Assembly (NCBI RefSeq): GCF_011045215.1
Contig: NZ_CP049201.1
Origin: Escherichia coli
Lineage (GTDB): Bacteria > Pseudomonadota > Gammaproteobacteria > Enterobacterales > Enterobacteriaceae
DNA length: 64,000 nt
Direction: 5' to 3' (one strand)
Shown: in pieces, positions 1,679 through 33,354 of the stretch
How the letters are laid out: every line of letters begins with the position of its first letter
Numbering within the stretch: position 1 is the first letter of the stretch
Translations under genes and position numbers: made by a program
The notes under the pieces: generated by a model
Told to the model about the DNA's origin: nothing
The model's input: the letters and a program-made list of their open reading frames with translations, nothing else
Database searches by the model: none

Positions 1679-1720
1679 TTTGCCGGATAATATAAAAAGT
1701 TATCCGGCAAATTATTTTTC
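1679..1720 (+). terminator. Putative terminator after yggM
   Basis: Hairpin tgccggataa-N10-ttatccggca followed by aattattttt. Confidence 0.5.
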
Positions 1721-3020
1721 ACATTAGCCCTAGTAGCTGTGGAATGAACAAGGATATTTGCGGAATGTAAGTGATCATCATCAACGCTACTAGCAATGCA
1801 GCATAAAATGGCAGCAATGGTTTGATTAAATGTTGAATCTTCACACCCGAGATAGAACAACCAACAAATAACGCACTACCCACCGGCGGTGTTAACAGCC
1901 CAATACAAAGGTTGGCCACCATCATAATACCGAAATGTACAGGGTCCATTCCCAGCTCTTGTGCAATCGGCAAGAAGATCGGTGTAAAGATTAGTACAGC
2001 CGGTGTCATGTCCATAAAGATGCCGACAATTAATAAGACGATATTAATCAGCAGCAATATGATCAGTGGGTTATCAGAAATCCTCATCAATGCGTCGCTG
2101 ATCATATAAGGAATATCAGCATTGGTCATTGCCCAGGACATGCCCACGGAAAAACCGATCAACAGTAATACAATCGAAGTGGTAACAACCGATTCCAGAA
2201 TCAGTTTGGGTAAATCGCGCCATTTCACTTCCCGGTAAATCAGCACCGAGAGAATAAATGTGTAGACAACGGCAATTGCTGACGCTTCAGTTGCGGTAAA
2301 AATGCCGCCCAGAATGCCGCCCATCACAATGAACACCAGAAGCAAACTTGGTAGGGCATCCAGAAACGCTTTACAGGCCTGAGCAAAGGTTGCTCTATCT
2401 GAAAGTGGGTAACCACGGCGTTTAGCAATAATGGCGCAGACAACCATTACCGCGAGCCCCATTAAGATCCCTGGCAAATATCCGGCCATAAATAGCGATG
2501 CTACGGAAACGCCGCCAGCGGTCAGGGAAAACACAATTAACACGTTTGAGGGCGGTATCAGTAATCCAGTAATACAGGATGAGACGTTTACAGCGGTAGA
2601 AAATGCCGGATCATAACCTTCTTTGGTCTGAATGGGATTAAGTGTGCCACCAACGGCAGCAGCTGCCGCAACGGCTGAACCAGAAATGGAACCAAACATC
2701 ATATTCGCCAGGACGTTCACATGACCAAGCGAACCAGGAACGCGGCCAACCATTACCTGGGCGAGGTTAATCAAACGTATCGCAATACCGCCGCTGTTCA
2801 TCAGCGTTCCGGCAAAGATGAAAAAGGGGATTGCCAACAGGGCAAAGTTATCCAGTCCATTAGCCAGTCGTTGCGAAACAGTGATTGCCGCGATATCCCA
2901 GGGAAACATCAAAAGCAATGAAGCTACAGTGGCAATACCGATTGAGAACGAAATGGGCACACCAATAAAGACCAGCACAAAAAAACAGCCAAACAGTGTA
3001 ATCGCGATATAACTATCCAT
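1719..3020 (-). CDS. TRAP transporter large permease subunit (DctM family)
   Basis: 433-aa highly hydrophobic multi-TM protein; tightly coupled to the DctQ-like and DctP-like genes upstream on the same strand; family assignment from sequence character and operon context, no HMM run. Confidence 0.8.
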   Translation of the reverse strand: MDSYIAITLFGCFFVLVFIGVPISFSIGIATVASLLLMFPWDIAAITVSQRLANGLDNFALLAIPFFIFAGTLMNSGGIAIRLINLAQVMVGRVPGSLGHVNVLANMMFGSISGSAVAAAAAVGGTLNPIQTKEGYDPAFSTAVNVSSCITGLLIPPSNVLIVFSLTAGGVSVASLFMAGYLPGILMGLAVMVVCAIIAKRRGYPLSDRATFAQACKAFLDALPSLLLVFIVMGGILGGIFTATEASAIAVVYTFILSVLIYREVKWRDLPKLILESVVTTSIVLLLIGFSVGMSWAMTNADIPYMISDALMRISDNPLIILLLINIVLLIVGIFMDMTPAVLIFTPIFLPIAQELGMDPVHFGIMMVANLCIGLLTPPVGSALFVGCSISGVKIQHLIKPLLPFYAALLVALMMITYIPQISLFIPQLLGLM

Positions 3021-3532
3021 TAACTGGCCTCCTGCTCAGGTTGTTTCAGTTGTTGAATGCTTTGGTTAATAAAACACAAGGCATAAAACATCATCACCAC
3101 TCCACTTAATGGCAGAATGATATATACGTATCCCATCGGTATTTGCATAGCGGCAGATACCTGAGATGTTGCCAGTGTTTTATCAATTAACTTCAGGCCA
3201 CCAGTCACAATGACCGAACCGGCAAAACCTAAAATGAGAACGTTAATGACTATACTAAGAAGTAATTGCTTGCGTTTATTCAAGGCGAGAGCAAATAAAT
3301 CAATAGAGAGATGTCGCTGCGCGCCGACGGTATATGCAGCACCTAATAATCCTACCCAGATCATCAAAAAGCGTGCCAGCTCATCGGTTAATGTACTTGG
3401 CTGGTTAAGTACGTAGCGGCTAAATACTTGCCAGACTACGCATACAACCAGAGCAAGCATGACGGCGACAGAAAACGCGGCAATGACGCGGTCTACCGCA
3501 AGTTTCAGGCGGTTAAATATCATTGTAAGCAT
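3020..3532 (-). CDS. TRAP transporter small permease subunit (DctQ family)
   Basis: 170-aa 4-TM-like protein between SBP and large permease; start/stop overlap with the DctM-like gene. Confidence 0.75.
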   Translation of the reverse strand: MLTMIFNRLKLAVDRVIAAFSVAVMLALVVCVVWQVFSRYVLNQPSTLTDELARFLMIWVGLLGAAYTVGAQRHLSIDLFALALNKRKQLLLSIVINVLILGFAGSVIVTGGLKLIDKTLATSQVSAAMQIPMGYVYIILPLSGVVMMFYALCFINQSIQQLKQPEQEAS

Positions 3533-3567
3533 CTTGGAAAATCAGGGCCAGAGACTGGCCCGGAATA

Positions 3568-4554
3568 TTATTGAGCAGCGTTGTCGAATTTCTCTAACAA
3601 AGCAGCTTGTTTTGGATCTTTTTTGAAGTCGTCAAACAGAGGTTGCACGGCTTTACGGAATGGCGCTTTATCCACTTTTACAATTTCCCCCCCCATAGCT
3701 TTCGCCTGAGCACGTGTGTCAGCGTCAATTTTTTCCCACAATTTTTGTTGATAAGCTTCGGATTTCTTCGCCGCTGTTTCAAGGATTTGTTGCTGTTCCG
3801 GGGTTAATTTATTCCATGTTTTGGTGGAGATAACCAAAAAGTCAGGAATTGAGGCGTGTTCATCTTCAGAAAAGACTTTGGCAATTTCAATATGTCGAGT
3901 CTGCACCCAGGAAGGCACGTTATTTTCTGCGCCATTTACTACACCTTGCTGCATCGCAGTATAAACTTCGCCAAATGAAATTGGAGTGGGTGAACCACCC
4001 ATCAGTTCAATCATTTTGATGGTGGTCGGACTTGGCTGAACACGAATTTTCAGTCCTTTAAGATCTTCTGGCTTTGTAATCGGTTTTTTCGCATAGAAAC
4101 TGCGTGTACCCGCTACATAAGCTGATAAAGCAAAAAAGCCTTTGTCTTTTGTTGAGTCCATAATTTCTTTACCAACTTCACCAAAAACAACTTTGTTGAA
4201 GTGCGCCTGATCTTTAAATAAGAACGGCAAATTATAGATAGCATAAATATTATCAAAAGACTCCAGATCACTGGCGGAACCTTTGGTCATATCCAGTGCG
4301 CCATTTTGCAACAATTCCATAGTTTCTCGCGCATTACCCATCTGGCTGCTGGGATAAATACGGATCACCATATTACCTTTTGACAGCTGTTTTACCTCTT
4401 TCGCCAGCTCTTCAAAACTCTGATGTACAACATGACTTCTTTCCAGGTTGTGTGCTAACTTTAACGTCACTTTTTCTGCGGCGTTTACGCCAGTGCTAAC
4501 CAGAGCCAGCAAGGATGCGCAGACTAATGAGCGGGTAAATGACCTCATCTTCAT
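3568..4554 (-). CDS. TRAP transporter substrate-binding protein (DctP family), secreted
   Basis: 328-aa protein with signal peptide (MKMRSFTRSLVCASLLALVSTGVNAAE); first gene of P-Q-M operon. Confidence 0.8.
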   Translation of the reverse strand: MKMRSFTRSLVCASLLALVSTGVNAAEKVTLKLAHNLERSHVVHQSFEELAKEVKQLSKGNMVIRIYPSSQMGNARETMELLQNGALDMTKGSASDLESFDNIYAIYNLPFLFKDQAHFNKVVFGEVGKEIMDSTKDKGFFALSAYVAGTRSFYAKKPITKPEDLKGLKIRVQPSPTTIKMIELMGGSPTPISFGEVYTAMQQGVVNGAENNVPSWVQTRHIEIAKVFSEDEHASIPDFLVISTKTWNKLTPEQQQILETAAKKSEAYQQKLWEKIDADTRAQAKAMGGEIVKVDKAPFRKAVQPLFDDFKKDPKQAALLEKFDNAAQ

Positions 4555-4840
4555 AAAAAAACTCCCTGTTGAAGGATGGAAATTGGTTGATATCTAATTG
4601 TGCTTATCAGTGCTTTGTGCGACAAATTGGTTAACCTGTCTGACAACTTGTCTATGTTTATCACAACTTGAAATAAAGTCAGGAATTAAATATTAATTTT
4701 GTGCGCCAGGTTGTACATATTTATAATCAATGAATGATTAGTAAATATTCACTAAATATATATAATAAATGTCGTCGATATTTATTCAGTAAGAAATATA
4801 TTTCTGCCGAGGTTAATTAACGGGGGGGATAAAAGAAGTG
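4555..4840 (-). promoter_or_regulatory. AT-rich upstream region of the TRAP operon (promoter and possible regulator/H-NS sites)
   Basis: ~290 bp strongly AT-rich non-coding DNA directly upstream of the DctP-like gene; no ORF of convincing size. Confidence 0.4.
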
Positions 4841-4866
4841 ATTAATGCGCCCGCAGGCGCATTAAT
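4841..4866 (-). terminator. Perfect 11-bp inverted repeat at hemW 3' end (probable hemW terminator)
   Basis: attaatgcgcc-cgca-ggcgcattaat, 2 nt downstream of hemW stop; RC strand continues cacttctttt. Confidence 0.45.
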
Positions 4867-4868
4867 GA

Positions 4869-6005
4869 TTACTCAGCGAGGAATAATTCAAGAAGTGAGT
4901 TTAAGAATAATTTACCATGTTCCGTTATCTGCCAGTAATCCGCACATTCGGTGAGATAACCCTGAGCGATAGCTTCGTCTAACTGTGGGCGAATCACTGC
5001 TTCAGAAAGGCCAGTATACTGACTAAACTCCACGCGCGGCGCAGGTTCCAGCAACCGGAAGCGATTCATAAAGAACTCAAACGGCTTATCTGCGGCTTCT
5101 ACATCACGCTGGCTTTCCAGATACCTTCCTTGCATAAAACCACGCGGATGGCGCGTTTTGGTGGTACGCAGAATGCGCCCATCCGGGAAGGTCACTTTGC
5201 CGTGTGCGCCGCAGCCAATACCGATGTAGTCACCAAAGCGCCAGTAGTTGAGATTGTGCTGGCACTGATAACCGGGTTTGGCGTAAGCGGAGGTTTCATA
5301 TTGCTGATAACCCGCTGCGGTTAATAACTGATGCCCCTGTTCGAATATATCCCACAACGCGTCATCGTCCGGCAGTACAGGAGGGCGCGAGCCAAACAGC
5401 GTATTAGGTTCGATGGTCAGTTGATACCAGGAAAGATGCGGCGGATTCAGTTCAATGGCCTGGCGTAGATCGCCAAGTGCCTCTTCCAGTGATTGATCCG
5501 GCAACCCATGCATCAAATCAAGGTTAAAGCTACGTAACCCTAAACCGCTCGCCAGCTTTGCCGCTCGTTTCGCTTCTTGCGGGCCATGAATACGCCCAAG
5601 TCGTTTCAGCTTTTCTTCGCTAAAACTCTGCACACCAATAGAGATGCGGTTCACACCAGCACGCTGATAATCGACAAAGCGATCGGCTTCTACCGTTCCA
5701 GGGTTCGCTTCCATAGTAATTTCTGCATCCGCTGCCAGCGGCAAACGCGCACGCACGCCGTCCAGCAGCGTTTGCATCGCCGGGCCGGAAAGCAGGCTCG
5801 GCGTACCACCGCCAATAAAGATTGTCTTTACTTCACGGCCCTGAGCGTAAGCCACATCGTTGTCCAGATCGTTAAGCAGATGCTGAACATAATCGTCGTG
5901 CGGCACTTCTCCTTTCAACGCGTGAGAGTTGAAATCGCAGTACGGGCATTTCTGCACGCACCACGGGATGTGAATGTAGAGACTCAGCGGCGGTAATTTA
6001 ACCAT
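4869..6005 (-). CDS. hemW: Radical SAM heme chaperone HemW (YggW)
   Basis: 378 aa; CxxxCxxC radical-SAM motif ([12 protein letters not shown]); conserved position next to rdgB. Confidence 0.9.
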
Positions 6006-6591
6006 TACGTAAAGCGTCCAGCAGCAGTTTCAATGCCTGACCACGGTGGGAAATGGCGCTCTTTTCTTCGCGGGTCAGTTCGGCAGCGGTTTTCCCTTCG
6101 GAAGGTACGAAGAAGATTGGATCATAACCAAAGCCACCAGTGCCCGCCGGTTCACGAGTAATCACGCCCGGCCAGCTGCCGTGGCACACCAGCGGGGTCG
6201 GATCTTCCGCGTGACGCAGATACACCAGCACGCAGTGGAAACGCGCCTGACGTTGGTCGTCCGGTACGTCTTTCAGTGTTTCCAGCAGTTTTTGCAGATT
6301 CTTTTGATCGGTCGCGTCTTCACCGGAATAACGTGCGGAGTAAATACCCGGCGCGCCGCCAAGCACATCTACCGCCAGACCAGAGTCGTCAGCAATTGCA
6401 GGTAAACCGGTCACTTTTGCCGCATGGCGCGCTTTCAGAATCGCGTTTTCAATAAAGGTCAGGCCGGTTTCTTCAGCGGAATCTACGCCGAGATCTGTTT
6501 GGGCCACGATATCAAGACCGAAGTCGCTAAGCAGCGACGCCAGCTCACGCACTTTACCGGCATTGCCGGTTGCGAGGACAACTTTTTGCAT
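5998..6591 (-). CDS. rdgB: dITP/XTP pyrophosphatase (Ham1 family)
   Basis: 197 aa, [16 protein letters not shown].. Ham1-type N-terminus; overlaps hemW start by 8 nt. Confidence 0.9.
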
Positions 6592-6598
6592 AGGATAC

Positions 6599-6889
6599 CT
6601 AATTAATTAACGCCGCGATTTCTGGCGGGATTTGTTGCGGATTAATGATTTTAATTTGTTTGTGGCGGCCAAGTTCGCCTTTTTCAATCACCACCTGGCT
6701 TTTGGCAACCCGGAATTGCTTACCGAGAAACTTCACCAGATGGCTGTTGGCCTGGCCGTCAACCGGCGGCGCGGTTATGGCGACTTTTACCTCGTCGCCA
6801 TGTAAACCGACAATAGAATCACGGCTGGCTTTCGGCTGAATATAAAGCCGTAAAACCAGACCGTCATCGTTAACTGTTACGGCACTCAT
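6599..6889 (-). CDS. yggU: DUF167 family protein YggU
   Basis: ORF track gives 100 aa from an upstream ATG; I prefer the internal start [10 protein letters not shown] (96 aa) that overlaps the yggT stop. Confidence 0.75.
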
Positions 6890-7452
6890 AACGCCATCCA
6901 CAGCCCCGGCAGCAGCATGTTTCCGGTTGCCTGTAATACTTCTGCGACACCCATATTGATGACATACAGCAGCAGAACGAGGATCATCGGCGAGAAATCA
7001 ATCCCACCCATTGCTGGTAGCAAGCGGCGAATCGGGCGCAGCAGCGGATCGGCCAGCTGAATCAGCACGTATTCAATCGGGCTACGGCCCTGGCTTACCC
7101 AGCTCATAATCGCCATCACCAGCAGGACCCAGAAAATCAGCAGGCCGATGGTTTTCAGCAGAATCAGTAAACCGGCAATCCAGATGATTGGCAGGAAGGT
7201 CACCACTTTAAACAGCACGATGGCTTTGATAAAACTGAGAATATAGGCAACCAGCAGCGAGGCGCTGTCAATGGGTCCCATTGCCGGAATAACGCGGCGC
7301 AGTGGCCCGATAATTGGCTGTGTTACCTTCACTACAAACTGTGAGAAGGGGTTGTAAAAATCACAATGAGCCCACTGCATCCAGATGCGTAATAACAGCA
7401 CCATGGTATACAGCTCAATGACCGTTGAAAGCAGGAAAGTCAACGTATTCAT
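6886..7452 (-). CDS. yggT: YggT family inner membrane protein
   Basis: 188 aa, hydrophobic; conserved yggS-yggT-yggU order. Confidence 0.85.
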
Positions 7453-7469
7453 GGCGTTCCTTTAATTCC

Positions 7470-8174
7470 TTATTTTTTAGAGTAATCACGCGCACCAAAA
7501 ATTGCAGTGCCGATACGAACCATCGTGCTACCTGCCGCAATGGCGGCTTCCATATCGTCCGACATTCCCAGAGAGAGCGTGTCGATATGCGGGTAGCGCG
7601 TTTTCAGTCCGGCAAATGCTACAGCCATTTGACGTGCAACTTCAAACTGCCTTACATATTCTGACTCAGGCGCAGGGATTGCCATCAGCCCGCGCAGACG
7701 TAAACGCGGTAGTTCAGCGACCGCAGCTGCCAGCTCGTCCAGTTCTGCCAGTTGAATCCCGGACTTACTGTTTTCATCACTAATATTAATTTGAATCAGT
7801 ACGTTAAGAGGGGGAAGTTCTGCCGGGCGCTGATCGTTGAGGCGGGTAGCAATGCGCAAACGGTCGATGGTATGACACCAGTCGAAATGCTCTGCCACCA
7901 GGCGGCTTTTATTAGACTGCAACGGGCCAATAAAATGCCATTCTAATCCTGTTACGCCCAGTTCCTGAAAGTGGCGAATTTTATCTACCCCTTCCTGAAC
8001 GTAGTTTTCACCAAATTGACGCTGCCCGGCATCAATGGCTTCTGCGATGGCGCTCGCAGGTTTTGTTTTACTGACTGCAAGCAGCGTAATTTCTTCTGGA
8101 GAACGGCCGCAACGCGTTGCAGCCGCTGAGATTTTGTCCCGGACCTGTGCCAGGTTATGCGCAATATCGTTCAT
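7470..8174 (-). CDS. yggS: PLP-binding homeostasis protein (COG0325)
   Basis: 234 aa; conserved K in LLAVSKTKP; matches YggS. Confidence 0.9.
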   Translation of the reverse strand: MNDIAHNLAQVRDKISAAATRCGRSPEEITLLAVSKTKPASAIAEAIDAGQRQFGENYVQEGVDKIRHFQELGVTGLEWHFIGPLQSNKSRLVAEHFDWCHTIDRLRIATRLNDQRPAELPPLNVLIQINISDENSKSGIQLAELDELAAAVAELPRLRLRGLMAIPAPESEYVRQFEVARQMAVAFAGLKTRYPHIDTLSLGMSDDMEAAIAAGSTMVRIGTAIFGARDYSKK

Positions 8175-8191
8175 TTTCCGAGGATCTTAGT

Positions 8192-9172
8192 ATGAATATG
8201 GAAGAAATTGTGGCCCTTAGTGTAAAGCATAACGTCTCGGATCTACACCTGTGCAGCGCCTGGCCCGCACGATGGCGCATTCGCGGCAGAATGGAAGCTG
8301 CGCCGTTTGATGCGCCGGACGTCGAAGAGCTACTGCGGGAGTGGCTGGATGACGATCAGCGGGCAATATTGCTGGAAAATGGCCAGCTGGATTTTGCCGT
8401 GTCGCTGACGGAAAACCAGCGATTGCGTGGCAGCGCATTCGCGCAACGGCATGGCATTTCGCTGGCGTTACGGCTGTTACCTTCGCACTGCCCGCAGCTC
8501 GAACAGCTTGGCGCACCAACGGTATTGCCGGAATTACTCAAGAGCGAGAATGGCCTGATTCTGGTGACGGGGGCTACGGGGAGTGGAAAATCTACCACGC
8601 TGGCGGCGATGGTTGGTTATCTCAATCAACATGCTGATGCGCATATTCTGACGCTGGAAGATCCTGTGGAATATCTCTATGCCAGCCAGCGATGTTTGAT
8701 CCAGCAGCGGGAAATCGGTTTGCATTGTATGACGTTCGCATCGGGATTGCGGGCCGCATTGCGGGAAGATCCTGATGTGATTTTGCTCGGAGAGCTGCGT
8801 GACAGCGAGACAATCCGTCTGGCGCTGACGGCGGCAGAAACCGGGCATCTGGTGCTGGCAACCTTACATACACGTGGTGCCGCGCAGGCAGTTGAGCGAC
8901 TTGTGGATTCATTTCCGGCGCAGGAAAAAGACCCCGTGCGTAATCAACTGGCAGGTAGTTTACGGGCAGTGCTGTCACAAAAGCTGGAAGTGGATAAACA
9001 GGAAGGACGCGTGGCGCTATTTGAATTGCTGATTAACACACCCGCGGTGGGGAATTTGATTCGCGAAGGGAAAACCCACCAGTTACCGCATGTTATTCAA
9101 ACCGGGCAGCAGGTGGGGATGATAACGTTTCAGCAGAGTTATCAGCAGCGGGTGGGGGAAGGGCGTTTGTGA
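8192..9172 (+). CDS. yggR: PilT-like type IV pilus retraction ATPase homologue
   Basis: Walker A GATGSGKST; start chosen at MNMEEIVALS (326 aa) rather than the longer ORF-track start. Confidence 0.85.
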   Translation: MNMEEIVALSVKHNVSDLHLCSAWPARWRIRGRMEAAPFDAPDVEELLREWLDDDQRAILLENGQLDFAVSLTENQRLRGSAFAQRHGISLALRLLPSHCPQLEQLGAPTVLPELLKSENGLILVTGATGSGKSTTLAAMVGYLNQHADAHILTLEDPVEYLYASQRCLIQQREIGLHCMTFASGLRAALREDPDVILLGELRDSETIRLALTAAETGHLVLATLHTRGAAQAVERLVDSFPAQEKDPVRNQLAGSLRAVLSQKLEVDKQEGRVALFELLINTPAVGNLIREGKTHQLPHVIQTGQQVGMITFQQSYQQRVGEGRL

Positions 9173-9189
9173 CGTTGCCATGCCCGATG

Positions 9190-9315
9190 TGCAAGCTTAT
9201 CGGGCCTACAAAGGCAATAAACGTCTGATGCGACGCTTGCGCGTCTTATCAGACCTACAACCGCTGCCACATGTAGGCTGGATAAGGCGTTCATGCCGCA
9301 TCCGGCAATAAGACG
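9190..9315. repeat. REP/BIME palindromic elements
   Basis: gcctgatgcgacgc / gtaggctggataaggcgttcatgccgcatccggca REP-type palindromes between convergent yggR and ruvX. Confidence 0.6.
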
Positions 9316-9355
9316 CGATGATATTATTTACACTCCGCCAGGCTTTTAAATCGCC

Positions 9356-10335: not shown

Positions 10336-10443
10336 TGTCAGAGGTTCTGTTTCCTGGTTCAAAAAAGCAACAGCGCCCAGTATGCGTGGAAAGAAGGGCG
10401 CTGTCACTCAGAGTCTCAACGAGATCCTTCTCGCTAAGGTGGG

Positions 10444-24638: not shown

Positions 24639-24654
24639 TTAGCATTTTGGGTAA

Positions 24655-24951: not shown

Positions 24952-25395
24952 ATGCGGCTTAGTGATTATTTTCCAGAATCATCAATCTCAGTTATACATT
25001 CAGCAAAAGATTGGCAGGAAGCTATCGATTTCTCGATGGTATCATTGCTGGATAAAAACTATATCAGCGAGAATTACATTCAGGCAATTAAAGATTCCAC
25101 CATTAACAATGGCCCTTATTATATTCTCGCACCAGGCGTGGCAATGCCTCATGCGCGACCGGAATGTGGGGCGCTTAAAACCGGGATGTCTTTGACATTA
25201 CTTAAACAAGGCGTTTATTTCCCGGGGGATGACGAACCGATTAAATTACTCATCGGACTTTCTGCTGCCGATGCCGATTCGCACATTGGCGCTATTCAGG
25301 CGTTAAGTGAATTACTGTGCGAAGAAGAAATACTCGAACAACTCTTAATAGCATCATCAGAAAAACAATTAGCGGACATTATCAGCCGCGGATAA
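24952..25395 (+). CDS. cmtB: PTS mannitol-type EIIA component (cryptic)
   Basis: 147 aa; EIIA(Mtl)-family size and conserved His region (GVAMPHARPE); precedes the EIICB gene. Confidence 0.8.
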   Translation: MRLSDYFPESSISVIHSAKDWQEAIDFSMVSLLDKNYISENYIQAIKDSTINNGPYYILAPGVAMPHARPECGALKTGMSLTLLKQGVYFPGDDEPIKLLIGLSAADADSHIGAIQALSELLCEEEILEQLLIASSEKQLADIISRG

Positions 25396-25422
25396 TTACT
25401 CTCTCCTCTACAGGATAATATT

Positions 25423-26811
25423 ATGGAAAACAAGTCTGCTCGTGCAAAGGTCCAGGCTTTTGGGGGCTTTTTGACTGCAATGGTCATCCCCAATATTGGT
25501 GCTTTTATTGCCTGGGGTTTTATTACTGCGTTATTTATTCCCACCGGTTGGCTGCCTAACGAACATTTCGCCAAAATTGTCGGCCCGATGATTACCTATT
25601 TATTGCCCGTGATGATTGGTTCTACCGGTGGTCATCTGGTCGGCGGTAAACGCGGCGCGGTTATGGGCGGAATAGGTACTATTGGTGTGATCGTCGGCGC
25701 AGAGATCCCGATGTTCCTTGGCTCAATGATTATGGGGCCGCTCGGTGGGCTGGTCATAAAATATGTCGATAAGGCACTGGAAAAACGCATACCTGCTGGT
25801 TTTGAGATGGTTATCAATAACTTCTCATTAGGTATCGCGGGGATGCTCCTTTGTCTGCTGGGTTTTGAAGTGATCGGCCCGGCGGTGTTAATTGCCAATA
25901 CTTTCGTCAAAGAGTGTATTGAGGCGCTGGTACATGCGGGTTATCTGCCTCTGCTGTCAGTCATCAATGAACCGGCGAAAGTGCTTTTCCTTAATAATGC
26001 GATCGATCAGGGCGTCTATTATCCGCTGGGAATGCAACAGGCTTCGGTTAACGGTAAATCCATCTTCTTTATGGTGGCCTCTAACCCAGGTCCGGGCCTG
26101 GGGCTGCTGCTGGCGTTTACCTTGTTTGGTAAAGGGATGAGTAAACGTTCTGCGCCCGGGGCGATGATTATTCACTTCCTCGGTGGGATCCACGAACTGT
26201 ATTTCCCATATGTGCTGATGAAGCCGCTGACTATTATTGCCATGATTGCGGGCGGTATGTCTGGCACCTAGATGTTTAACTTACTGGACGGTGGTCTGGT
26301 GGCTGGCCCAAGTCCGGGGTCTATCTTTGCTTACCTGGCGCTGACGCCGAAAGGTTCGTTCCTGGCGACAATTGCCGGTGTTACGGTAGGTACCCTGGTG
26401 TCCTTTGCTATCACTTCGCTGATACTGAAGATGGAAAAAACGGTGGAAACGGAGAGCGAAGATGAGTTTGCTCAGTCAGCCAATGCGGTTAAGGCGATGA
26501 AACAAGAGGGTGCATTCTCGTTAAGCAGGGTTAAGCGTATCGCCTTTGTTTGCGATGCGGGGATGGGCTCCAGTGCGATGGGCGCGACCACCTTCCGTAA
26601 ACGCCTGGAAAAAGCGGGGCTGGCAATTGAAGTAAAACATTACGCCATAGAAAACGTGCCTGCGGATGCGGATATCGTCGTTACTCATGCCAGTCTGGAA
26701 GGGCGCGTGAAACGTGTGACGGATAAACCACTGATATTGATTAATAACTATATTGGCGATCCAAAACTCGACACTTTATTTAATCAATTAACCGCCGAAC
26801 ATAAACACTGA
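25423..26811 (+). pseudogene. cmtA: PTS mannitol-type EIICB component, interrupted by in-frame amber codon
   Basis: ORFs 25423..26271 (282 aa) and 26272..26811 (179 aa) are contiguous in one frame, separated only by TAG at 26269..26271; combined length equals a 462-codon EIICB gene. Confidence 0.7.
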
Positions 26812-26825
26812 TTACAGAGGTAAAA

Positions 26826-28103
26826 ATGAAAACCAAAGTTGCTGCTATTTATGGCAAGCGGGATGTCCGTCTGCGCGAATTTGAACTGCCAGAAATTACC
26901 GATAATGAATTACTGGTGAGTGTGATTTCTGACAGCGTCTGTTTATCCACCTGGAAAGCGGCGTTACTCGGTAGTGAACATAAACGCGTACCCGACGATT
27001 TAGAAAATCATCCGGTCATTACCGGGCATGAATGTGCTGGGGTTATTGTCGAAGTGGGTAAAAATCTCACTGGCAAATATAAAAAAGGCCAGCGTTTTGT
27101 ATTGCAACCGGCGATGGGGTTACCAAGCGGATATTCAGCGGGCTACAGCTACGAATATTTTGGCGGCAATGCCACTTATATGATTATTCCCGAAATCGCC
27201 ATTAATTTGGGCTGCGTATTACCGTATCACGGCTCTTATTTTGCTGCGGCGTCGCTGGCAGAGCCTATGTGCTGCATTATTGGTGCTTATCATGCCAATT
27301 ATCACACCACGCAATATGTTTATGAGCATCGCATGGGCGTCAAACCTGGCGGCAATATTGCACTGCTGGCGTGTGCAGGTCCGATGGGCATTGGCGCTAT
27401 CGATTACGCCATTAACGGCGGCATACAACCGTCGCGGGTGGTGGTGGTCGATATCGACGACAAACGTCTGGCGCAGGTACAGAAGCTGCTGCCGGTGGAA
27501 CTGGCGGCCAGTAAAGGCATTGAGCTGGTGTATGTGAATACCAAAGGGATGAGCGATCCTGTCCAGATGCTGCGGGCGCTGACAGGAGATGCCGGGTTCG
27601 ATGACATTTTTGTTTATGCGGCGGTGCCTGCTGTCGTTGAGATGGCTGATGAATTACTGGCGGAAGATGGCTGTCTGAACTTCTTTGCCGGGCCGACGGA
27701 TAAAAACTTCAAAGTGCCGTTTAATTTCTACAACGTTCATTACAACAGCACGCACGTCGTCGGTACATCCGGCGGTTCAACGGACGACATGAAAGAGGCA
27801 ATTGCCCTTAGCGCCACTGGGCAGTTACAGCCGTCGTTTATGGTGACCCATATCGGTGGCCTGGATGCGGTGCCAGAAACCGTGCTCAATCTGCCGGATA
27901 TCCCTGGCGGTAAAAAACTCATTTATAACGGCGTGACCATGCCGCTCACTGCCATTGCCGATTTTGCCGAAAAAGGCAAAACCGAACCGCTGTTTAAAGA
28001 GTTGGCGCGGCTGGTTGAGGAAACGCACGGCATCTGGAATGAACAGGCCGAGAAATATCTGCTGGCACAATTTGGCGTTGATATCGGGGAGGCCGCGCAA
28101 TGA
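26826..28103 (+). CDS. yggP: Zn-dependent medium-chain dehydrogenase/reductase, YggP-like
   Basis: 425 aa; MDR zinc-site Cys/His (GHECAG) and Rossmann glycine motif (CAGPMGIGA). Confidence 0.8.
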   Translation: MKTKVAAIYGKRDVRLREFELPEITDNELLVSVISDSVCLSTWKAALLGSEHKRVPDDLENHPVITGHECAGVIVEVGKNLTGKYKKGQRFVLQPAMGLPSGYSAGYSYEYFGGNATYMIIPEIAINLGCVLPYHGSYFAAASLAEPMCCIIGAYHANYHTTQYVYEHRMGVKPGGNIALLACAGPMGIGAIDYAINGGIQPSRVVVVDIDDKRLAQVQKLLPVELAASKGIELVYVNTKGMSDPVQMLRALTGDAGFDDIFVYAAVPAVVEMADELLAEDGCLNFFAGPTDKNFKVPFNFYNVHYNSTHVVGTSGGSTDDMKEAIALSATGQLQPSFMVTHIGGLDAVPETVLNLPDIPGGKKLIYNGVTMPLTAIADFAEKGKTEPLFKELARLVEETHGIWNEQAEKYLLAQFGVDIGEAAQ

Positions 28104-29065
28104 TGTCCCTGGCGTGGCCATTATTTCGCGTTACGGAACAGGCAGCATTGGCTGCCTGGCCGCAAACCGGATGTGGCGACAAAAATAAAATTGATGGCCT
28201 GGCGGTCACCGCGATGCGCCAGGCATTAAACGACGTCGCTTTTCGTGGACGAGTGGTTATCGGCGAAGGAGAAATTGACCATGCGCCGATGCTGTGGATT
28301 GGCGAAGAGGTGGGCAAAGGCGATGGGCCAGAAGTCGATATCGCGGTTGATCCCATTGAAGGCACGCGGATGGTGGCGATGGGGCAGAGCAATGCGCTGG
28401 CGGTCATGGCTTTCGCCCCTCGAGATAGCCTGTTACATGCGCCTGATATGTATATGAAAAAGCTGGTTGTTAATCGACTGGCTGCCGGGGCGATTGATCT
28501 GTCTTTGCCTCTGGCGGACAACTTGCGTAACGTGGCGCGGGCGTTAGGTAAACCGCTGGACAAGCTGCGCATGGTTACGCTGGATAAACCGCGTCTGAGT
28601 GCCGCGATTGAGGAAGCAACACAGCTGGGGGTGAAAGTTTTTGCCCTGCCGGATGGCGATGTCGCCGCCAGCGTGCTGACCTGCTGGCAGGATAATCCTT
28701 ACGACGTGATGTACACCATCGGCGGCGCGCCGGAAGGCGTGATTTCTGCCTGTGCAGTCAAAGCGTTAGGCGGAGATATGCAGGCGGAATTAATCGATTT
28801 TTGTCAGGCTAAAGGGGATTACACGGAGAATCGGCAGATTGCAGAGCAGGAACGCAAGCGTTGCAAGGCAATGGGCGTTGACGTTAACCGTGTGTACTCG
28901 CTCGACGAACTGGTGAGGGGGAACGATATCCTCTTTAGCGCTACGGGCGTCACGGGCGGCGAGCTGGTGAACGGTATCCAACAGACGGCGAATGGGGTGC
29001 GGACGCAGACATTACTGATCGGCGGCGCGGACCAAACGTGTAATATAATAGACTCCCTGCATTGA
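28100..29065 (+). CDS. yggF: Class II (GlpX-type) fructose-1,6-bisphosphatase homologue
   Basis: 321 aa; GlpX-like sequence; start overlaps yggP stop. Confidence 0.8.
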   Translation: MMSLAWPLFRVTEQAALAAWPQTGCGDKNKIDGLAVTAMRQALNDVAFRGRVVIGEGEIDHAPMLWIGEEVGKGDGPEVDIAVDPIEGTRMVAMGQSNALAVMAFAPRDSLLHAPDMYMKKLVVNRLAAGAIDLSLPLADNLRNVARALGKPLDKLRMVTLDKPRLSAAIEEATQLGVKVFALPDGDVAASVLTCWQDNPYDVMYTIGGAPEGVISACAVKALGGDMQAELIDFCQAKGDYTENRQIAEQERKRCKAMGVDVNRVYSLDELVRGNDILFSATGVTGGELVNGIQQTANGVRTQTLLIGGADQTCNIIDSLH

Positions 29066-29086
29066 TGGTGATCTATCGGAAGACCA

Positions 29087-29596
29087 ATGGCGACGCTGAC
29101 AGAAGATGATGTGCTTGAGCAACTGGATGCACAGGACAATTTATTTTCATTTATGAAAACTGCGCATTCTATTTTGCTCCAGGGAATACGCCAGTTTCTG
29201 CCGTCGCTGTTTGTCGATAACGATGAAGAGATCGTGGAATATGCAGTGAAGCCGTTACTTGCCCAAAGCGGCCCGCTTGACGATATTGATGTTGCGCTGC
29301 GTTTGATTTATGCGCTGGGGAAAATGGATAAATGGCTGTACGCCGATATCACTCATTTTTCCCAGTTCTGGCATTACCTGAACGAACAGGATGAAGCGCC
29401 CGGATTTGCCGATGACATGACCTGGGATTTTATCAGCAACGTCAATAGCATAACCCGCAATGCGATGCTCTATGACGCGTTAAAAGCGATGAAGTTCGCT
29501 GATTTCGCCGTCTGGTCAGAGGCGCGTTTTAGCGGGATGGTCAAAACGGCGCTGACGCTGGCAGTAACGACCACCTTAAAGGAATTAACGCCGTGA
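29087..29596 (+). CDS. yggD: MtlR-like small protein (YggD/FumE)
   Basis: 169 aa, MATLTEDDVLEQLDAQDNLFSFMKTAHSILLQGIRQF. Confidence 0.7.
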   Translation: MATLTEDDVLEQLDAQDNLFSFMKTAHSILLQGIRQFLPSLFVDNDEEIVEYAVKPLLAQSGPLDDIDVALRLIYALGKMDKWLYADITHFSQFWHYLNEQDEAPGFADDMTWDFISNVNSITRNAMLYDALKAMKFADFAVWSEARFSGMVKTALTLAVTTTLKELTP

Positions 29597-30306
29597 AAAT
29601 TGAATTAACGGTGAATGGGCTGAACGTGCAAGCGCAGTACCATGAGGAAGAGATAAAACGCGTGCATAAACCGTTGCTGCGCATGTTGGCGGCCTTACAG
29701 ACGGTAAATCCGCAGCGGCGAACCGTGGTTTTTCTTTGCGCTCCGCCGGGAACGGGAAAATCGACCCTGACTACCTTCTGGGAATATCTCGCGCAACAAG
29801 ACCCCGAACTGCCCGCTATCCAGACGCTCCCGATGGATGGTTTTCACCATTACAATAGCTGGCTGGATGCGCATCAGCTACGCCCGTACAAAGGCGCGCC
29901 GCAGACATTTGATGTGGCAAAACTGGCAGAAAAATTGCGCCAGGCAGTGCAGGGCGACTGTACGTGGCCGCAGTACGATCGACAAAAACATGATCCGGTA
30001 GAAGATGCGTTGCATGTTACCGCACCAATAATCATCGTCGAAGGAAACTGGCTATTGCTGGATGACGAGAAGTGGCGCCAGCTTGCGCAATTTTGTGATT
30101 TCTCGATCTTTATTAACGCGCCCGCAGCGGCGTTGCGGGAGCGTCTGGTGGGGCGCAAGCTGGCGGGAGGGTTATCGCTGGCAGACGCAGAAGCTTTTTA
30201 TGACCGTACCGACGGGCCGAATGTTCGCCGGGTGCTGGAAGAGAGTCTGCCTGCAAATTTGACCTTAATGATGACCGCTACGGGTGAATATCGTCTGGTG
30301 GATTAA
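29593..30306 (+). CDS. yggC: P-loop nucleoside/pantothenate kinase-like protein YggC
   Basis: 237 aa; Walker A APPGTGKST. Confidence 0.8.
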   Translation: MKIELTVNGLNVQAQYHEEEIKRVHKPLLRMLAALQTVNPQRRTVVFLCAPPGTGKSTLTTFWEYLAQQDPELPAIQTLPMDGFHHYNSWLDAHQLRPYKGAPQTFDVAKLAEKLRQAVQGDCTWPQYDRQKHDPVEDALHVTAPIIIVEGNWLLLDDEKWRQLAQFCDFSIFINAPAAALRERLVGRKLAGGLSLADAEAFYDRTDGPNVRRVLEESLPANLTLMMTATGEYRLVD

Positions 30307-30955
30307 TGTTCCTGATTAGACCATCTTCCAGTCGCACCACACGAGAGAAATGACGCCGGGTAAATGCGGCGTCATGACTGATTGCTACGACGCTCGTGCC
30401 TCGCTGGCGGCACTTCTCCAGCCAGCTTTCAAACACGCTCAACCAATTTTCGTCAAAATCCCGACTCGGCTCGTCCAGCAGCAATAGTGGCGGAGAGAGT
30501 GCTTCCAGGCAGGCGACGGCGACCATCCGTCGCTGCGCACTATGCAGATCCAACGGGTGCGCGCTGGCAGTGTCTGCTAACTGACAACATTGCAGGGCAG
30601 CATGGGTACGTTGAGTGATTTCATCCGCCGGGCATTTTTGCAGTTTCAAACCAAATGCGATCTCGTCAGCGACGGTGCTGTGAAAAAGTTGGTTTTCCGC
30701 TTCCTGAAACAGTACGCCAATCTTTGCCGCGCGCTGGCGGTTTTTCAGGTTTTTCATCGCCTGTTGTTGCCGCATAACCGTACCGGCTGTGGGCGTAAGA
30801 AGACCTGCCATTACTCGTAACAGCGTCGATTTCCCTGCGCCATTGTCACCGGTCAGCGCCAACCATTCACCTTGTTTGAGTTGCAGAGAAATGTCGCAAA
30901 GACAATCCGTTGCCGCGCCAGGCCAGCGATAAGATATCTGATTTAACGTTAACAT
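30278..30955 (-). CDS. ABC-type ATPase (EcfA-like) with degenerate signature motif
   Basis: Walker A GDNGAGKST, Walker B LLLLDEP, but signature region reads LHSAQRRM instead of LSGGQ; start chosen at MLTLNQISYRW; 3' end overlaps yggC 3' end by 29 bp. Confidence 0.7.
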   Translation of the reverse strand: MLTLNQISYRWPGAATDCLCDISLQLKQGEWLALTGDNGAGKSTLLRVMAGLLTPTAGTVMRQQQAMKNLKNRQRAAKIGVLFQEAENQLFHSTVADEIAFGLKLQKCPADEITQRTHAALQCCQLADTASAHPLDLHSAQRRMVAVACLEALSPPLLLLDEPSRDFDENWLSVFESWLEKCRQRGTSVVAISHDAAFTRRHFSRVVRLEDGLIRNINPPDDIHP

Positions 30956-31632
30956 AGTGGCTGGAGCGCTCCGTTTTGCAATTGCCACGCTTGCTGGCAG
31001 TAGTTCAGGAAAGGTGTGCGATGACGTTCAAAAAGAATAATCAGCGAACCACGTTCAAACGCCCAGTGTTGTAATCGCTGCAACAGCATTTCGCTGGCCT
31101 GCGGCGTCAGGCGGCTAAAGGCTTCATCAAGAATTAATAGCTTTGGCTGCATCGCGATGGCGCAGGCGATGACCACGCGCTGTGTCTCTCCACCGGAGAG
31201 TGTTGCTGGGTGACGATGGCGCAACGGCTGGCACTCGGTCAGAGTCAGGGCGGCATCAATCCGCGCCATAATCTCTGCTTCAGCAAGACACAGATTTTCT
31301 GGCCCAAAGGCAACTTCTTCTTCCACGCTAAAGGTACAGCCGGAGAGCTGCAAATAGGGCGATTGCTGGACGAGCTGGATGGTGGCGGATTGTTCATTAA
31401 GCGGGAGATGCCCAATGGGCGTACCGAGGAGCGTCCCCGTGCCTGTTATCTCTCCTGGCAGAAAGTCCGGATACCAGCCCGCCATCAGCTGTGCCAGCGT
31501 ACTTTTGCCACTGCCGTTGTCACCAAAGATGGCGACCATCCCCGGTTTGACATAGTGAAAGTTATAACAGAACGGAGGATGCGTTGAGTGTGTCGGGCAA
31601 TAACGGAACTGTTCTAACGTAACCATATCCAC
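30949..31632 (-). CDS. ABC-type ATPase (EcfA-like), canonical motifs
   Basis: Walker A GDNGSGKST, signature LSGGETQRV, Walker B LLILDEA; start uncertain by a few codons. Confidence 0.75.
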   Translation of the reverse strand: MDMVTLEQFRYCPTHSTHPPFCYNFHYVKPGMVAIFGDNGSGKSTLAQLMAGWYPDFLPGEITGTGTLLGTPIGHLPLNEQSATIQLVQQSPYLQLSGCTFSVEEEVAFGPENLCLAEAEIMARIDAALTLTECQPLRHRHPATLSGGETQRVVIACAIAMQPKLLILDEAFSRLTPQASEMLLQRLQHWAFERGSLIILFERHRTPFLNYCQQAWQLQNGALQPLC

Positions 31633-32321
31633 GCTCCGAATTCTGTCAGCATCAGCAAGATCATGGTGTAACGCGCTACGCGTTGTAGGGTGCTATCGGC
31701 TGGTGCCCACAACGTTGTTCGTCGGTTGTGGATCCGAAATGCCCGCATATCCAGCGCCGCACCGCGGACAGCAAGATCGTTTAGCGCATTGTGTGTTAGC
31801 GGAATAATTAACGCGGGCATCGCACGTAAACGCTGATACCAGCCCTCATCCAGCGGCACGCCGCGGGCACGCTGCGCTTCATGAATAATCGCTAATTGCC
31901 GTTTTAACTGCTCAACGACCAATAACGGACCGGCAAACAGATAAGCGACGCCTGGCGGCAGGCGAGAAGCAAACAGAGCGCGGATAAAACATTGCACGGG
32001 GACGTACTGCATCCACAACTGTGAGGTTGAAACAATCGCCAGAATCCGCAACCAGAGCGTAATAGCATGCGTCCAACGCTCCGGCGAACGCGGCGTGCCG
32101 CTTAGCCATTCTGTTAGCCAGCCACCGTGTACCAGCCACAGCCCGGCTCCCAGCGAGAACATCAGCCAGACGACATATTTTGCCCGCCGCCGCGTGGCCT
32201 TTAGCGCAATAAGGCAGAAAAAGGTCGCCGCGCTATAGACTGGCAGTATTGTCTGTGTGGGCAGGATAAGCGTGGTGCAGGCCGCCAATGCCCATAGTGT
32301 TAATGAGGTAAATGGATGCAT
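31614..32321 (-). CDS. ECF transporter T component (EcfT/CbiQ-like)
   Basis: 235-aa multi-TM protein with two Ala-Arg-Gly-type coupling motifs (EAQRARGVP and DLAVRGAAL) in the C-terminal half; directly upstream of two ABC ATPase genes. Confidence 0.65.
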   Translation of the reverse strand: MHPFTSLTLWALAACTTLILPTQTILPVYSAATFFCLIALKATRRRAKYVVWLMFSLGAGLWLVHGGWLTEWLSGTPRSPERWTHAITLWLRILAIVSTSQLWMQYVPVQCFIRALFASRLPPGVAYLFAGPLLVVEQLKRQLAIIHEAQRARGVPLDEGWYQRLRAMPALIIPLTHNALNDLAVRGAALDMRAFRIHNRRTTLWAPADSTLQRVARYTMILLMLTEFGAWIWLR

Positions 32322-32900
32322 TTAGCGCACGGCAGCCATTGCCGGAAAATGGCGCGTGGTGCGAATCGGCAGCTGGCGCAGTAAAAGCCAGACAATCACC
32401 GCTGTAAGAGTTTTATCGACCAGGTTCGCGCCTATCACTGTAATTGCCACCGACTCCACCAGGTTTTGCCCCATCGAGTGCATCCAGGCAACGAACAAAT
32501 CGGCTCCGCTACCGGTGACACCGCCGAACAGCGCAGTACGCAGCGGTACAGCGACGACCGTTACCGCAAGCGTAATAATCACGCCGCTGACAACGACTTT
32601 TGGCAGGGTGCGGAACCAACCCGCTCGCGCCAGCCAACCAGCGACCAGGCCGATGACCATCGCCACGGGCGCAAATGCGGCGGCGATCGGGTCGGTCAGC
32701 AATCCCCAGAGTAAATTGGTCAGTAAGCCGGTCAGCATCCCGATCACCGGACCAAGCAGTACCGCGCTAATAAGTGTGCCGATGGAGTCGAGAAATATAG
32801 GTAATTTGACCATGCTGGCCAGTTGCCCGCCGATCATATTGATGGCGATAGATATAACGATCAACACCAGTGCCTGACTGGAAAAGTGGCTACGCGCCAT
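32322..32900 (-). CDS. Small integral membrane protein, probable ECF substrate-specific (S) component
   Basis: ~192 aa from MARSHFSSQALVLIVISIAIN (ORF-track upstream extension would overlap the PPC gene); 5-6 predicted TM segments; position directly upstream of T component. Confidence 0.5.
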   Translation of the reverse strand: MARSHFSSQALVLIVISIAINMIGGQLASMVKLPIFLDSIGTLISAVLLGPVIGMLTGLLTNLLWGLLTDPIAAAFAPVAMVIGLVAGWLARAGWFRTLPKVVVSGVIITLAVTVVAVPLRTALFGGVTGSGADLFVAWMHSMGQNLVESVAITVIGANLVDKTLTAVIVWLLLRQLPIRTTRHFPAMAAVR

Positions 32901-32922
32901 AAGAAAACCTCTCTGAAAGTAG

Positions 32923-33354
32923 TTATTTAACGGGGGAAATATGCAACTCGTCGTAACCAGAAAGCGCGCAAGGTTGGCGGCTAAACGCCAGTTCCTCAAG
33001 GCTACCGATCACCAGTTCAAGCGTGGTCCGCACGGTACAGCCGGGCATCATATGACCGCCAAGCATCGTGCCGTGTGGATCGGAAACGCAGAGATGAAGA
33101 TGCTCACCACTCTGTTCCAACGTGCCGTTTAGTGAGATCACTTCGAATGTACCGTTCAGGAGCGTGGTGCCTTCTTGCCCGGCATAGCGCAAGGCGATGT
33201 CAGTCAGGCTACCGGTACAGCCTGCAATCCAGGCGGCATGAAGTTGCTGCTGCTGTGCAAAAGCGTGTAGCTGGGAAAAAACTTCCTGCCCGGGGAGGAG
33301 GCGCAGTGCGTAAAAGCGTGCGGAGGAAGAATATGGGTAGGGCAATGTCATCAT
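32923..33354 (-). CDS. PPC/DUF296-domain protein
   Basis: 143 aa; pattern G.FEV.SLNGTL....HLH......G...GGH...GC.V....E.V resembles the PPC (plants-and-prokaryotes conserved, DUF296) fold; first gene of the operon. Confidence 0.6.
   Translation of the reverse strand: MMTLPYPYSSSARFYALRLLPGQEVFSQLHAFAQQQQLHAAWIAGCTGSLTDIALRYAGQEGTTLLNGTFEVISLNGTLEQSGEHLHLCVSDPHGTMLGGHMMPGCTVRTTLELVIGSLEELAFSRQPCALSGYDELHISPVK

Follow-up and report, generated by a model that had tools for sequence, protein, structure and literature searches.

Does a stretch of the Escherichia coli chromosome with three segments that are missing in strain K-12 carry three acquired islands, or does it show what K-12 has lost? We examined this question in a 64-kb window (the whole stretch of DNA analyzed), which runs from ansB to pgk and beyond. 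When the window was compared with K-12 MG1655 using blastn, the match was interrupted at 1663/4869, 19350/20286, and 30237/33517, and the following segments were missing in K-12:

1664-4868: segment with the TRAP transporter operon dctPQM
19351-20227: segment with a lipoprotein gene
30307 to ~33470: five-gene ECF transporter cluster

The presence of K-12-missing segments at three sites is an ordinary finding. An earlier note on this DNA had located the three segments, described two of them as transporters, and preferred ancient indels or deletions in K-12 to recent mobile-element insertions. The locations and the absence from K-12 MG1655 were confirmed by blastn, Pfam and NCBIfam models assigned two segments to the TRAP and ECF families, and the preference for ancient events is supported by the occupation of the same sites in other genera. 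In the reading that we favor, with a probability of roughly 85%, the segments already belonged to the ancestral Enterobacteriaceae chromosome and were inherited vertically, and K-12 and many other E. coli strains hold derived absence alleles with three separate histories. The window strain would then retain the full ancestral layout.

The first site lies between yggM and hemW and is organized as follows:

656-1663, plus strand: yggM (DUF1202), left flank of the TRAP site, from the annotation of homologous loci
1664-1718: spacer between the convergent genes yggM and dctM, with a perfect 12-nt hairpin at 1679-1711
1719-3020, minus strand: dctM, TRAP large permease, 433 aa (PF06808, E=5e-122; TIGR00786, 474 bits, above cutoff)
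3020-3532, minus strand: dctQ, TRAP small permease (PF04290, E=1.7e-30)
3568-4554, minus strand: dctP, TRAP solute-binding protein (PF03480, E=1.3e-83)
4555-4868: AT-rich region (32.5% GC) upstream of dctP, with the hemW terminator hairpin at 4834-4873
4869-6005, minus strand: hemW, right flank of the TRAP site

A large permease, a small permease, and a family-7 binding protein are thus encoded together, as in TRAP transporters of the DctPQM type, and TIGR00787 (NCBIfam) also scored above its cutoff in this operon. The hairpin at 1679-1711 is a probable bidirectional terminator; the first 14 nt of its spacer occur as two haplotypes among TRAP-positive strains. A PDB sequence search identified 4N15, 4MHF, and 4N91 as the closest solved relatives of DctP (E ~1e-59 to 1e-67), and 4MHF and 4N91 are binders of D-glucuronate/D-galacturonate (PMC7660916). 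The system is therefore probably an importer of a sugar acid, perhaps hexuronate-like. It shares its three-gene dctP-dctQ-dctM layout with YiaMNO of E. coli and STM3169-71 of Salmonella, a D-glucuronate binder system, but it lies at another locus and falls far below the cutoffs of the YiaN and YiaM equivalog models (295 vs 800 and 39 vs 260 bits). In contrast to known sugar-acid TRAP systems, no catabolic or regulator gene adjoins it. When 1-36 kb was scanned with Rfam, neither a riboswitch nor any other RNA hinting at the substrate of the TRAP or the ECF system was detected.

At the second site, the segment follows speA:

19351-19495: spacer from speA to the lipoprotein gene, within the 877 bp that K-12 lacks
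19496-20227, plus strand: lipoprotein gene, 243 aa, with a signal peptide ending in an LAGC lipobox
20228-20285: spacer 3' of the lipoprotein gene, by eye a diverged counterpart of the 60-nt speA-speB spacer of K-12

Lipidation of the 243-aa product is predicted from its N-terminal signal peptide with a lipobox of the form [LVI][ASTVI][GAS]C (MKKWKVRSALVALIVLLAGC...). No Pfam or NCBIfam family was found for this protein, a PDB sequence search returned no solved relative, and literature searches found no paper describing a lipoprotein between speA and speB.

The third site is located between yggC and epd:

29593-30306, plus strand: yggC (nucleoside/nucleotide kinase family), left flank of the ECF site
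30278-30955, minus strand: ECF ATPase (A2; PF00005 and ECF_ATPase models, annotation)
30949-31626, minus strand: ECF ATPase (A1; Pfam/NCBIfam models, annotation)
31614-32321, minus strand: ECF T (transmembrane) component (weak CbiQ match, 21.4 vs 25 bits, below the Pfam cutoff; RefSeq name)
32322-32900, minus strand: ECF S (substrate-specific) component (PF12822, 32.5 bits, above the 30.7 cutoff)
32923-33354, minus strand: PCC/PPC-domain protein, putatively DNA-binding, first gene of the cluster (PF03479, E=3.5e-28)
33355-33560: intergenic region between the divergent PCC-domain gene and epd

Here, the S component and two ABC ATPases were recognized by models, and the T component by the sub-threshold CbiQ match together with its RefSeq name. 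The arrangement of S, T, and two A components in one operon resembles that of BioMNY and CbiMNQO (dedicated, group I-like ECF systems), and the system is likewise predicted to be a dedicated importer. It differs from them in that the S component fits only the uncharacterized CD3073 family (NF045596), its nearest NCBIfam family, and does so below the cutoff (134 vs 180 bits), as a relative rather than a confirmed member; moreover, the operon begins with the PCC-domain protein, and no riboswitch was found upstream in the Rfam scan. No solved relative of the S component was returned by a PDB sequence search, and no paper describing an ECF cluster beside epd/yggC was found in literature searches. 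A vitamin-B6 paper considered as a source, since epd is a PLP-pathway gene, proved silent on the cluster. As for the margins of the segment, yggC and the 3' end of ecfA2 share 29 bp in the window, and identity to K-12 is at most 83% at ~33470-33560 and 100% from 33600.

The main evidence comes from the same sites in other genera. In Salmonella enterica and Kluyvera, hemW and yggM enclose the dctPQM operon; in Klebsiella variicola, the operon adjoins hemW. The lipoprotein gene is found directly 3' of speA in Salmonella, Citrobacter freundii, and Klebsiella. The gene string PCC-S-T-A-A' adjoins epd in Salmonella, E. albertii, and Atlantibacter, and the ECF cluster occupies the interval between yggC and epd in E. 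albertii, E. whittamii, several Citrobacter, Superficieibacter, Silvania, and Phytobacter. Because the segments are syntenic in other Enterobacteriaceae genera, their presence would be ancestral and the K-12 state derived; judged by gene order, "island" is a misnomer for all three.

Within the species, each site is essentially a two-allele system. In a clinically biased collection of 5426 complete E. coli genomes, counted marginally per site, the TRAP, lipoprotein, and ECF segments were present in 27%, 65%, and 61%, respectively, and the absence alleles were found in 72%, 34%, and 39%. The expression "lineage-specific deletions in K-12" used previously is therefore supported with regard to loss but too narrow with regard to K-12, as the absence alleles are widespread. 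Like other presence/absence polymorphisms of the E. coli backbone, the segments are single-copy gene blocks at fixed sites between core genes, free of tRNA, integrase, and IS. Unlike in the usual cases, polarity can be assigned, with presence in other genera and the K-12 reference derived. Ordinary homologous recombination, acting through the core genes on either side, may carry the alleles from one lineage to another.

The three absence alleles differ from one another, and this bears on the best surviving alternative, namely that all three absences are deletions that occurred in situ in E. coli and that the sequences at the ECF and TRAP junctions diverged afterwards, when evolution was relaxed or accelerated. 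For the lipoprotein site (3550 genomes with the gene and 1865 with the K-12 junction, out of 5426), such a deletion fits exactly. The absence allele is 99-100% identical among the 1865 genomes, flanking divergence is normal, and the loss is one clean deletion spanning the 877 bp between the stop codons of speA and the lipoprotein gene. Since it is nearly invariant among its carriers, this deletion probably had a single origin, later than those of the other two absence alleles.

At the ECF site, 3319 genomes carry the cluster and 2094 have the K-12 junction. The last third of K-12 YggC is only 67% identical to the window protein, which in this part is 94-95% identical to that of E. albertii; thus, the window allele resembles those of other Escherichia species, and it is the K-12 allele that is hyperdivergent. 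Over yggC codons 160-236, dS between K-12 and the window is undefined (saturated) and dN is 0.32, yet reading frame, length, and conserved motifs have been preserved, and the synonymous sites of the K-12 3' part are saturated against every Escherichia allele examined. The divergence is confined to a patch of ~0.7-1 kb (the 3' part of yggC plus the spacer) bounded by sequence of 98-100% identity. Loss of the ECF cluster would release the 3' end of yggC from its overlap with ecfA2, and constraint could shift as a result; relaxed selection, however, lifts dN rather than dS, and a short patch between nearly identical flanks points to a patch introduced by recombination or to an old haplotype in tight linkage. 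Because synonymous saturation is combined with such flanks, the K-12 ECF-less allele does not appear to be a recent in situ deletion. The comparison suggests that the 3' end of K-12 yggC is of foreign origin or very old. No donor was found among 56 yggC loci from 100,044 species representatives scanned, in which the best match outside E. coli reached 68%. Deletions of the other kind do occur in the genus: Escherichia sp. MOD1-EC7003 and E1V33 carry ECF deletion scars, in which ~230 bp from the 3' end of ecfA2 and 24-88 bp from the 5' end of the PCC gene are left, and their breakpoints differ, indicating independent deletions. The K-12-type allele would instead predate E. coli by far or have been brought in from an ECF-less relative that is unsampled. 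Tentatively, and with more doubt than confidence, we propose that the ECF cluster was lost not by deletion within E. coli but through homologous recombination with an empty allele from a distant unsampled enterobacterial lineage, or that its absence goes back to a presence/absence haplotype far older than the species, and that the TRAP and REP alleles may form a second such pair.

REP/BIME elements of E. coli are repetitive extragenic palindromes with a role in rearrangement. In TRAP-less genomes, such an element with 1, 3, or 5 units takes the place of the operon (3881 REP-only vs 1460 TRAP-positive genomes among the 5426), and both states are mixed inside phylogroups B1 and B2. Its units are ~35-nt imperfect palindromes of the GCCGGATG...CATCCGGC type, extragenic and multicopy; a query containing the K-12 REP spacer matched a median of 15 places per genome. 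The REP/BIME, a mobile-type repeat, belongs to the TRAP-less allele and is not part of the TRAP site of the window; a near-identical copy lies elsewhere in the window, at positions 9213-9310, which are 97% identical to the yggM-hemW spacer of K-12 (blastn). The array resembles other REP/BIMEs of E. coli in that palindromic units lie between two convergent genes, but differs from ordinary ones in that it sits precisely where a 3.2-kb operon and a neighbor's terminator would be: the REP-only allele replaces the whole stretch that starts 14 nt past the yggM stop and ends at the hemW stop, and with it the ancestral hemW hairpin. Empty alleles with 1, 3, or 5 units have one common right junction, and two types of the allele differ markedly in the left ~30 nt; by parsimony, a single origin may be argued. 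A REP-associated deletion would have swapped the operon span for a single REP unit, with later growth to 3 or 5 units, and REP could be either the cause of the deletion or a mere filler of the gap. Strains HS-02 and BS-04 seemed to hold remnants of TRAP pseudogenes, but these were rejected as deletion intermediates, as long homopolymer runs and scrambled fragments indicated poor assemblies. The last ~200 nt of hemW in the window are 84-85% identical to K-12, and the encoded last 40 residues are identical. The differences therefore fall where the protein is unchanged, which argues against relaxed evolution after an in situ deletion. The TRAP-less allele appears to be old because its A/B1/E and B2 versions have diverged and synonymous diversity at the hemW 3' end is high. 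Taken for all three sites together, in situ deletion within E. coli is thus unlikely.

A considerably less probable explanation is that the sites are insertion hotspots at which E. coli and other genera gained similar cassettes independently, so that presence would be derived. In some lineages, such gains could account for the patchy presence of the ECF cluster between yggC and epd across genera and among yggC-bearing species, as well as for its displaced location in Buttiauxella sp. B2, where it is found between tktA and cmtB, on the other side of the cmt-yggC module. The window-type TRAP is polymorphic in Salmonella too, since S. Typhimurium LT2 is described as having only three other TRAP systems (PMC7660916). 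Nevertheless, gene order, orientation, and the hemW terminator hairpin, whose core ATGCGCCCGCAGGCGCAT is common to TRAP-positive E. coli alleles and Salmonella, are kept across genera. Protein identities drop with phylogenetic distance and follow the species phylogeny (ECF S shares 96% with E. albertii, 91% with Salmonella, and 81% with Buttiauxella; DctP shares 90% with Salmonella). The ECF deletion scars in two Escherichia species are clear, and no vehicle for repeated acquisition is visible.

Signs of mobility were searched for at all three segments. ARAGORN detected no tRNA or tmRNA gene in the whole 64 kb, and RefSeq annotation of near-identical E. coli loci showed no integrase, transposase, or IS pseudogene inside or adjoining any segment, which bears out the earlier note on this point. 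Pfam matches of the segment proteins were confined to transporter and PCC domains. A repeat search of each segment with its flanks found no repeats paired across both boundaries, the matches being short and at chance level. The alignment with genomes lacking each segment that had been proposed located the junctions, and comparison with the empty alleles revealed no duplication there; the direct repeats or IS remnants that were to speak for mobility were not found at the boundaries. Because each segment is single-copy (median of 1 place per genome), embedded IS, MITE, or REP sequences are excluded. No genuine plasmid or phage copy was found among the matches: the plasmid matches were chromosomes of 4.8-4.9 Mb, or large pieces of chromosomes, that had been entered as plasmids, and the phage matches were fragments of host DNA or bacterial contigs. 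In terms of GC content, the window has 51%, the TRAP operon 42-46%, and the lipoprotein gene 48.8%; the low value of the TRAP operon could signal foreign origin, yet its core neighbor yggM is equally low (44.6%). None of the four hallmarks of a mobile genomic island (integrase, tRNA, flanking repeats, and outgroup absence or mobile context) was present. Recent mobile-element insertion (by integrative islands, transposons, or phages that later lost their mobility genes), which the absence of all three segments from the reference K-12 and the below-average GC of two of them might suggest, is thus effectively refuted by these results, by the same genes at the same sites in several other genera, and by a divergence within E. 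coli (95-99.9% identity) similar to that of core genes.

Under the vertical inheritance that we favor, the choice of K-12 as a yardstick makes ancestral segments look like islands, and it is the reference strain that has been reduced. An ECF-type transporter missing in K-12 is encoded by about 61% of complete E. coli genomes, and a second TRAP system, whose substrate is plausibly a sugar acid, by about 27%; the earlier suggestion that selection was driven by niche-specific nutrient acquisition is a conjecture. The absence of the TRAP and ECF systems is relevant wherever K-12 serves as a "transporter-free" host or as a template for metabolic models. In addition, the hyperdivergent yggC end tied to the ECF-less allele offers a small testable case of an absence allele spreading by recombination.

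Essentially all of 5426 complete E. coli genomes matched the window at 95-99% identity in a megablast search. The gene order, taken from RefSeq annotation for K-12 MG1655 and for the loci with the best matches, is ansB-yggM-[TRAP]-hemW-rdgB...gshB-rsmE-endA-galP-metK-speA-[lipoprotein]-speB-loiP-tktA-cmtBA-yggP-yggF-fumE-yggC-[ECF]-epd-pgk. The blastn alignment of the window with K-12 was interrupted at three places, whose gene content is as the earlier note had claimed.

Interruptions of the window/K-12 alignment (blastn), with contents and allele counts in 5426 complete genomes
TRAP, break at 1663/4869: 3205 bp in the window versus 154 bp in K-12; DctM, DctQ and DctP; present in 1460 genomes (27%), K-12-type junction (yggM and hemW adjacent) in 3881
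Lipoprotein, break at 19350/20286: 935 bp versus 60 bp; 243-aa protein whose signal peptide ends in LAGC, without family match; present in 3550 (65%), K-12-type junction in 1865
ECF, break at 30237/33517: 3279 bp versus 144 bp; two ECF-type ATPases, T component, S component and PCC-domain protein; present in 3319 (61%), K-12-type junction in 2094

These three segments are ancestral and were lost from K-12 and many other strains; they are not islands. To assess polarity, one protein per segment was used to find homologues in other genera, and the contigs were then inspected. The TRAP binding protein shares about 90% identity with its homologue in Salmonella enterica and 88-90% with those in Kluyvera and Klebsiella. 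The dctPQM operon is flanked by hemW and yggM in Salmonella and Kluyvera; in Klebsiella variicola it adjoins hemW, with yggN at the opposite side because this locus lacks yggM and ansB. The hemW terminator hairpin ATGCGCCCGCAGGCGCAT adjoining the operon is common to E. coli TRAP-carrying alleles and Salmonella. In Salmonella and Citrobacter (73-74% identity) and in Klebsiella (about 61%), the gene that immediately follows speA encodes the lipoprotein. The five-gene ECF cluster adjoins epd in E. albertii, Salmonella and Atlantibacter (S component 96%, 91% and 86% identical, respectively). Among 56 loci found with a YggC query in species-representative genomes, those of E. albertii, E. whittamii, several Citrobacter, Superficieibacter, Silvania and Phytobacter have the cluster between yggC and epd, and others lack it. 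In two ECF-less Escherichia species, the scars left behind consist of about 230 bp from the 3' end of ecfA2 and 24-88 bp from the 5' end of the PCC gene. Their breakpoints are dissimilar; the deletions, caught in the act, were independent. Given the same-site homologues and these scars, presence is ancestral and the K-12 state derived. The preference of the earlier note for ancient indels or K-12 losses over recent mobile insertions is thus supported, and refined.

Recent mobile insertion finds no footing in the segments themselves: annotation, tRNA search and repeat search bore out that they lack mobility genes, tRNA genes, IS and boundary repeats. No tRNA or tmRNA was found across the 64 kb, no integrase, transposase or IS fragment in the annotation of near-identical loci, and only short chance repeat matches, with no pair at the segment boundaries. 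With one copy of every segment per genome, an embedded multicopy element is excluded. Matches in plasmid and phage databases included no mobile copy of any segment: the former were mislabelled chromosomes or chromosome fragments carrying the entire neighbourhood, the latter bacterial contigs or short unannotated host fragments. Specifically, plasmid-collection records NZ_CP134663.1, NZ_CP141089.1, NZ_OL790696.1 and NZ_LN868944.1 are multi-megabase chromosomes or large chromosomal contigs, and phage-collection record AGRM01000002.1 is likewise misfiled chromosomal DNA; such records produce false "mobile" matches for core genes.

Within E. coli, presence and absence together account for about 5422 of 5426 genomes at the lipoprotein and ECF sites and for about 5340-5370 at the TRAP site, and each site is therefore essentially biallelic. 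The segments diverge from the window by 0.1-5%, as core genes do (ECF identity is 95.4% in ST131 and 99.1% in O157:H7). TRAP is absent in O104:H4 2011C-3493 and present in O111:H- 11128, both of which we take to be phylogroup B1; it is absent in CFT073 and present in MS14385, presumably both B2 and the latter an ST131 isolate. On these assignments, TRAP state varies inside B1 and B2. AB66, the genome nearest the window over 12-36 kb (99.1%), lacks TRAP. This patchiness without a mobile vehicle points to allele exchange via homologous recombination. O111:H- 11128 and QA-1986 83 also carry a ~7.3-kb insertion, absent from the window, within the equivalent of 12001-36000, with dagR among its annotated genes.

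In the empty TRAP alleles examined, repetitive extragenic palindrome (REP) units alone separate the yggM and hemW stop codons: one unit in GPEC617, MRY15-131 and CFT073, three in K-12, AB66 and O104:H4, and five in 08-3914. The right junction is identical in all of them (...CCGCATCCGGCAATACAA(G/A)T, then TTA). The first 14 nt past yggM, GTTTGATATAGTGC, are common to the A/B1 empty allele and the B1 TRAP-carrying allele, which fixes the left breakpoint. Empty alleles fall into two diverged types (A/B1/E versus B2). Over the final 200 nt of hemW, the window and K-12 share only 84-85% identity, yet the last 40 encoded residues are identical; the polymorphism is therefore old. A query containing the REP unit matches a median of 15 places per genome, and the window has one copy at 9213-9310. 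REP units may be either the cause of TRAP loss or later gap filler. REP/BIME elements lie in the yggR-ruvX (9213-9310) and speB-loiP (21373-21530) spacers; the latter is about 110 bp longer in K-12, by one extra repeat unit (overlapping blastn pieces). PGAP-annotated TRAP pseudogenes in HS-02 (7672-8861 of the locus inspected) and BS-04 (827-1527 of the locus inspected), RefSeq "complete" genomes from a single study, were rejected as real decay; in these yggM-hemW regions, TRAP fragments are scrambled and homopolymer runs are long, as if from faulty assembly or base calling.

Lipoprotein absence looks like a single simple deletion. K-12 lacks exactly the 877 bp from the speA stop to the lipoprotein stop, and its 60-nt spacer resembles, by eye, a diverged form of the window's spacer after the lipoprotein gene. 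The absence allele is 99-100% identical among carriers, and flanking genes show normal divergence.

The ECF site is more complex. Identity to K-12 is 98-100% over cmtA-yggP, 85-93% at the yggC 5' end and 57% at its 3' end, returning on the epd side first to 83% and, within 150 bp, to 100%. The last third of YggC is 67% identical between K-12 and the window; for the window, identity in this part is 94-95% with E. albertii and 76-80% with Citrobacter and Raoultella. Over codons 160-236, dN is 0.32 and dS saturated, with length and motifs retained. Judging from these alignments, a recent in-situ deletion cannot be the source of the K-12 pattern; its ECF-less allele would either predate the species by far or have been imported from an ECF-less lineage. 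No donor of the K-12 yggC end was found among the 56 loci.

More broadly, yggC (29593-30306) is unusually polymorphic within Escherichia and looks mosaic. The window and E. albertii are nearly identical in the last third (dS 0.11) and strongly different in the first 100 codons (dS 0.74); the K-12 first part is nearest to Escherichia sp. MOD1-EC7003 (dS 0.17). This suggests between-species recombination. Positions 33600-36000 (epd-pgk) are 99-100% identical to K-12 over 2.4 kb; much of the remaining region differs by 2-4%, and the adjacent yggC by far more, a sharp mosaic boundary. The six-gene module cmtB-cmtA-yggP-yggF-fumE-yggC (24952-30306) also varies across the family. In Salmonella, which lacks it, the ECF cluster adjoins tktA directly; an ABC ATPase gene immediately after tktA suggests the same layout in C. 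freundii, and in Buttiauxella sp. B2 the cluster lies between tktA and cmtB instead of yggC and epd.

GC content is 42-46% in TRAP, 48.8% in the lipoprotein gene and 53-57% in ECF (window, 51.4%). The core gene yggM is also GC-poor (44.6%), and low GC therefore characterises the region, not just the TRAP operon. The orthologous operon of Salmonella, Klebsiella and Kluyvera has 51-55% GC although the proteins are ~90% identical; in the E. coli copy, synonymous sites have shifted towards AT (656-4868 with yggM, 42-46%).

Among solved structures, DctP is closest to the TRAP binding proteins 4N15, 4MHF and 4N91; 4MHF and 4N91 bind D-glucuronate/D-galacturonate, and 4N15 served as a modelling template (PMC7660916). 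A sugar acid is a plausible substrate of this TRAP system. The ECF cluster is predicted to be a dedicated S-T-A-A' system with the PCC-domain protein gene in front; searches found no riboswitch or solved relative for it, and its sole family match, to the uncharacterised CD3073 family, was below threshold.

Segment loss of this kind is a well-known phenomenon; only the hyperdivergent yggC end that accompanies the ECF-less allele is mildly out of the ordinary. Niche-specific nutrient uptake, suggested in the earlier note as the selective driver, may or may not underlie the polymorphism; the high frequency of the absence alleles shows only that these genes are dispensable in many lineages.
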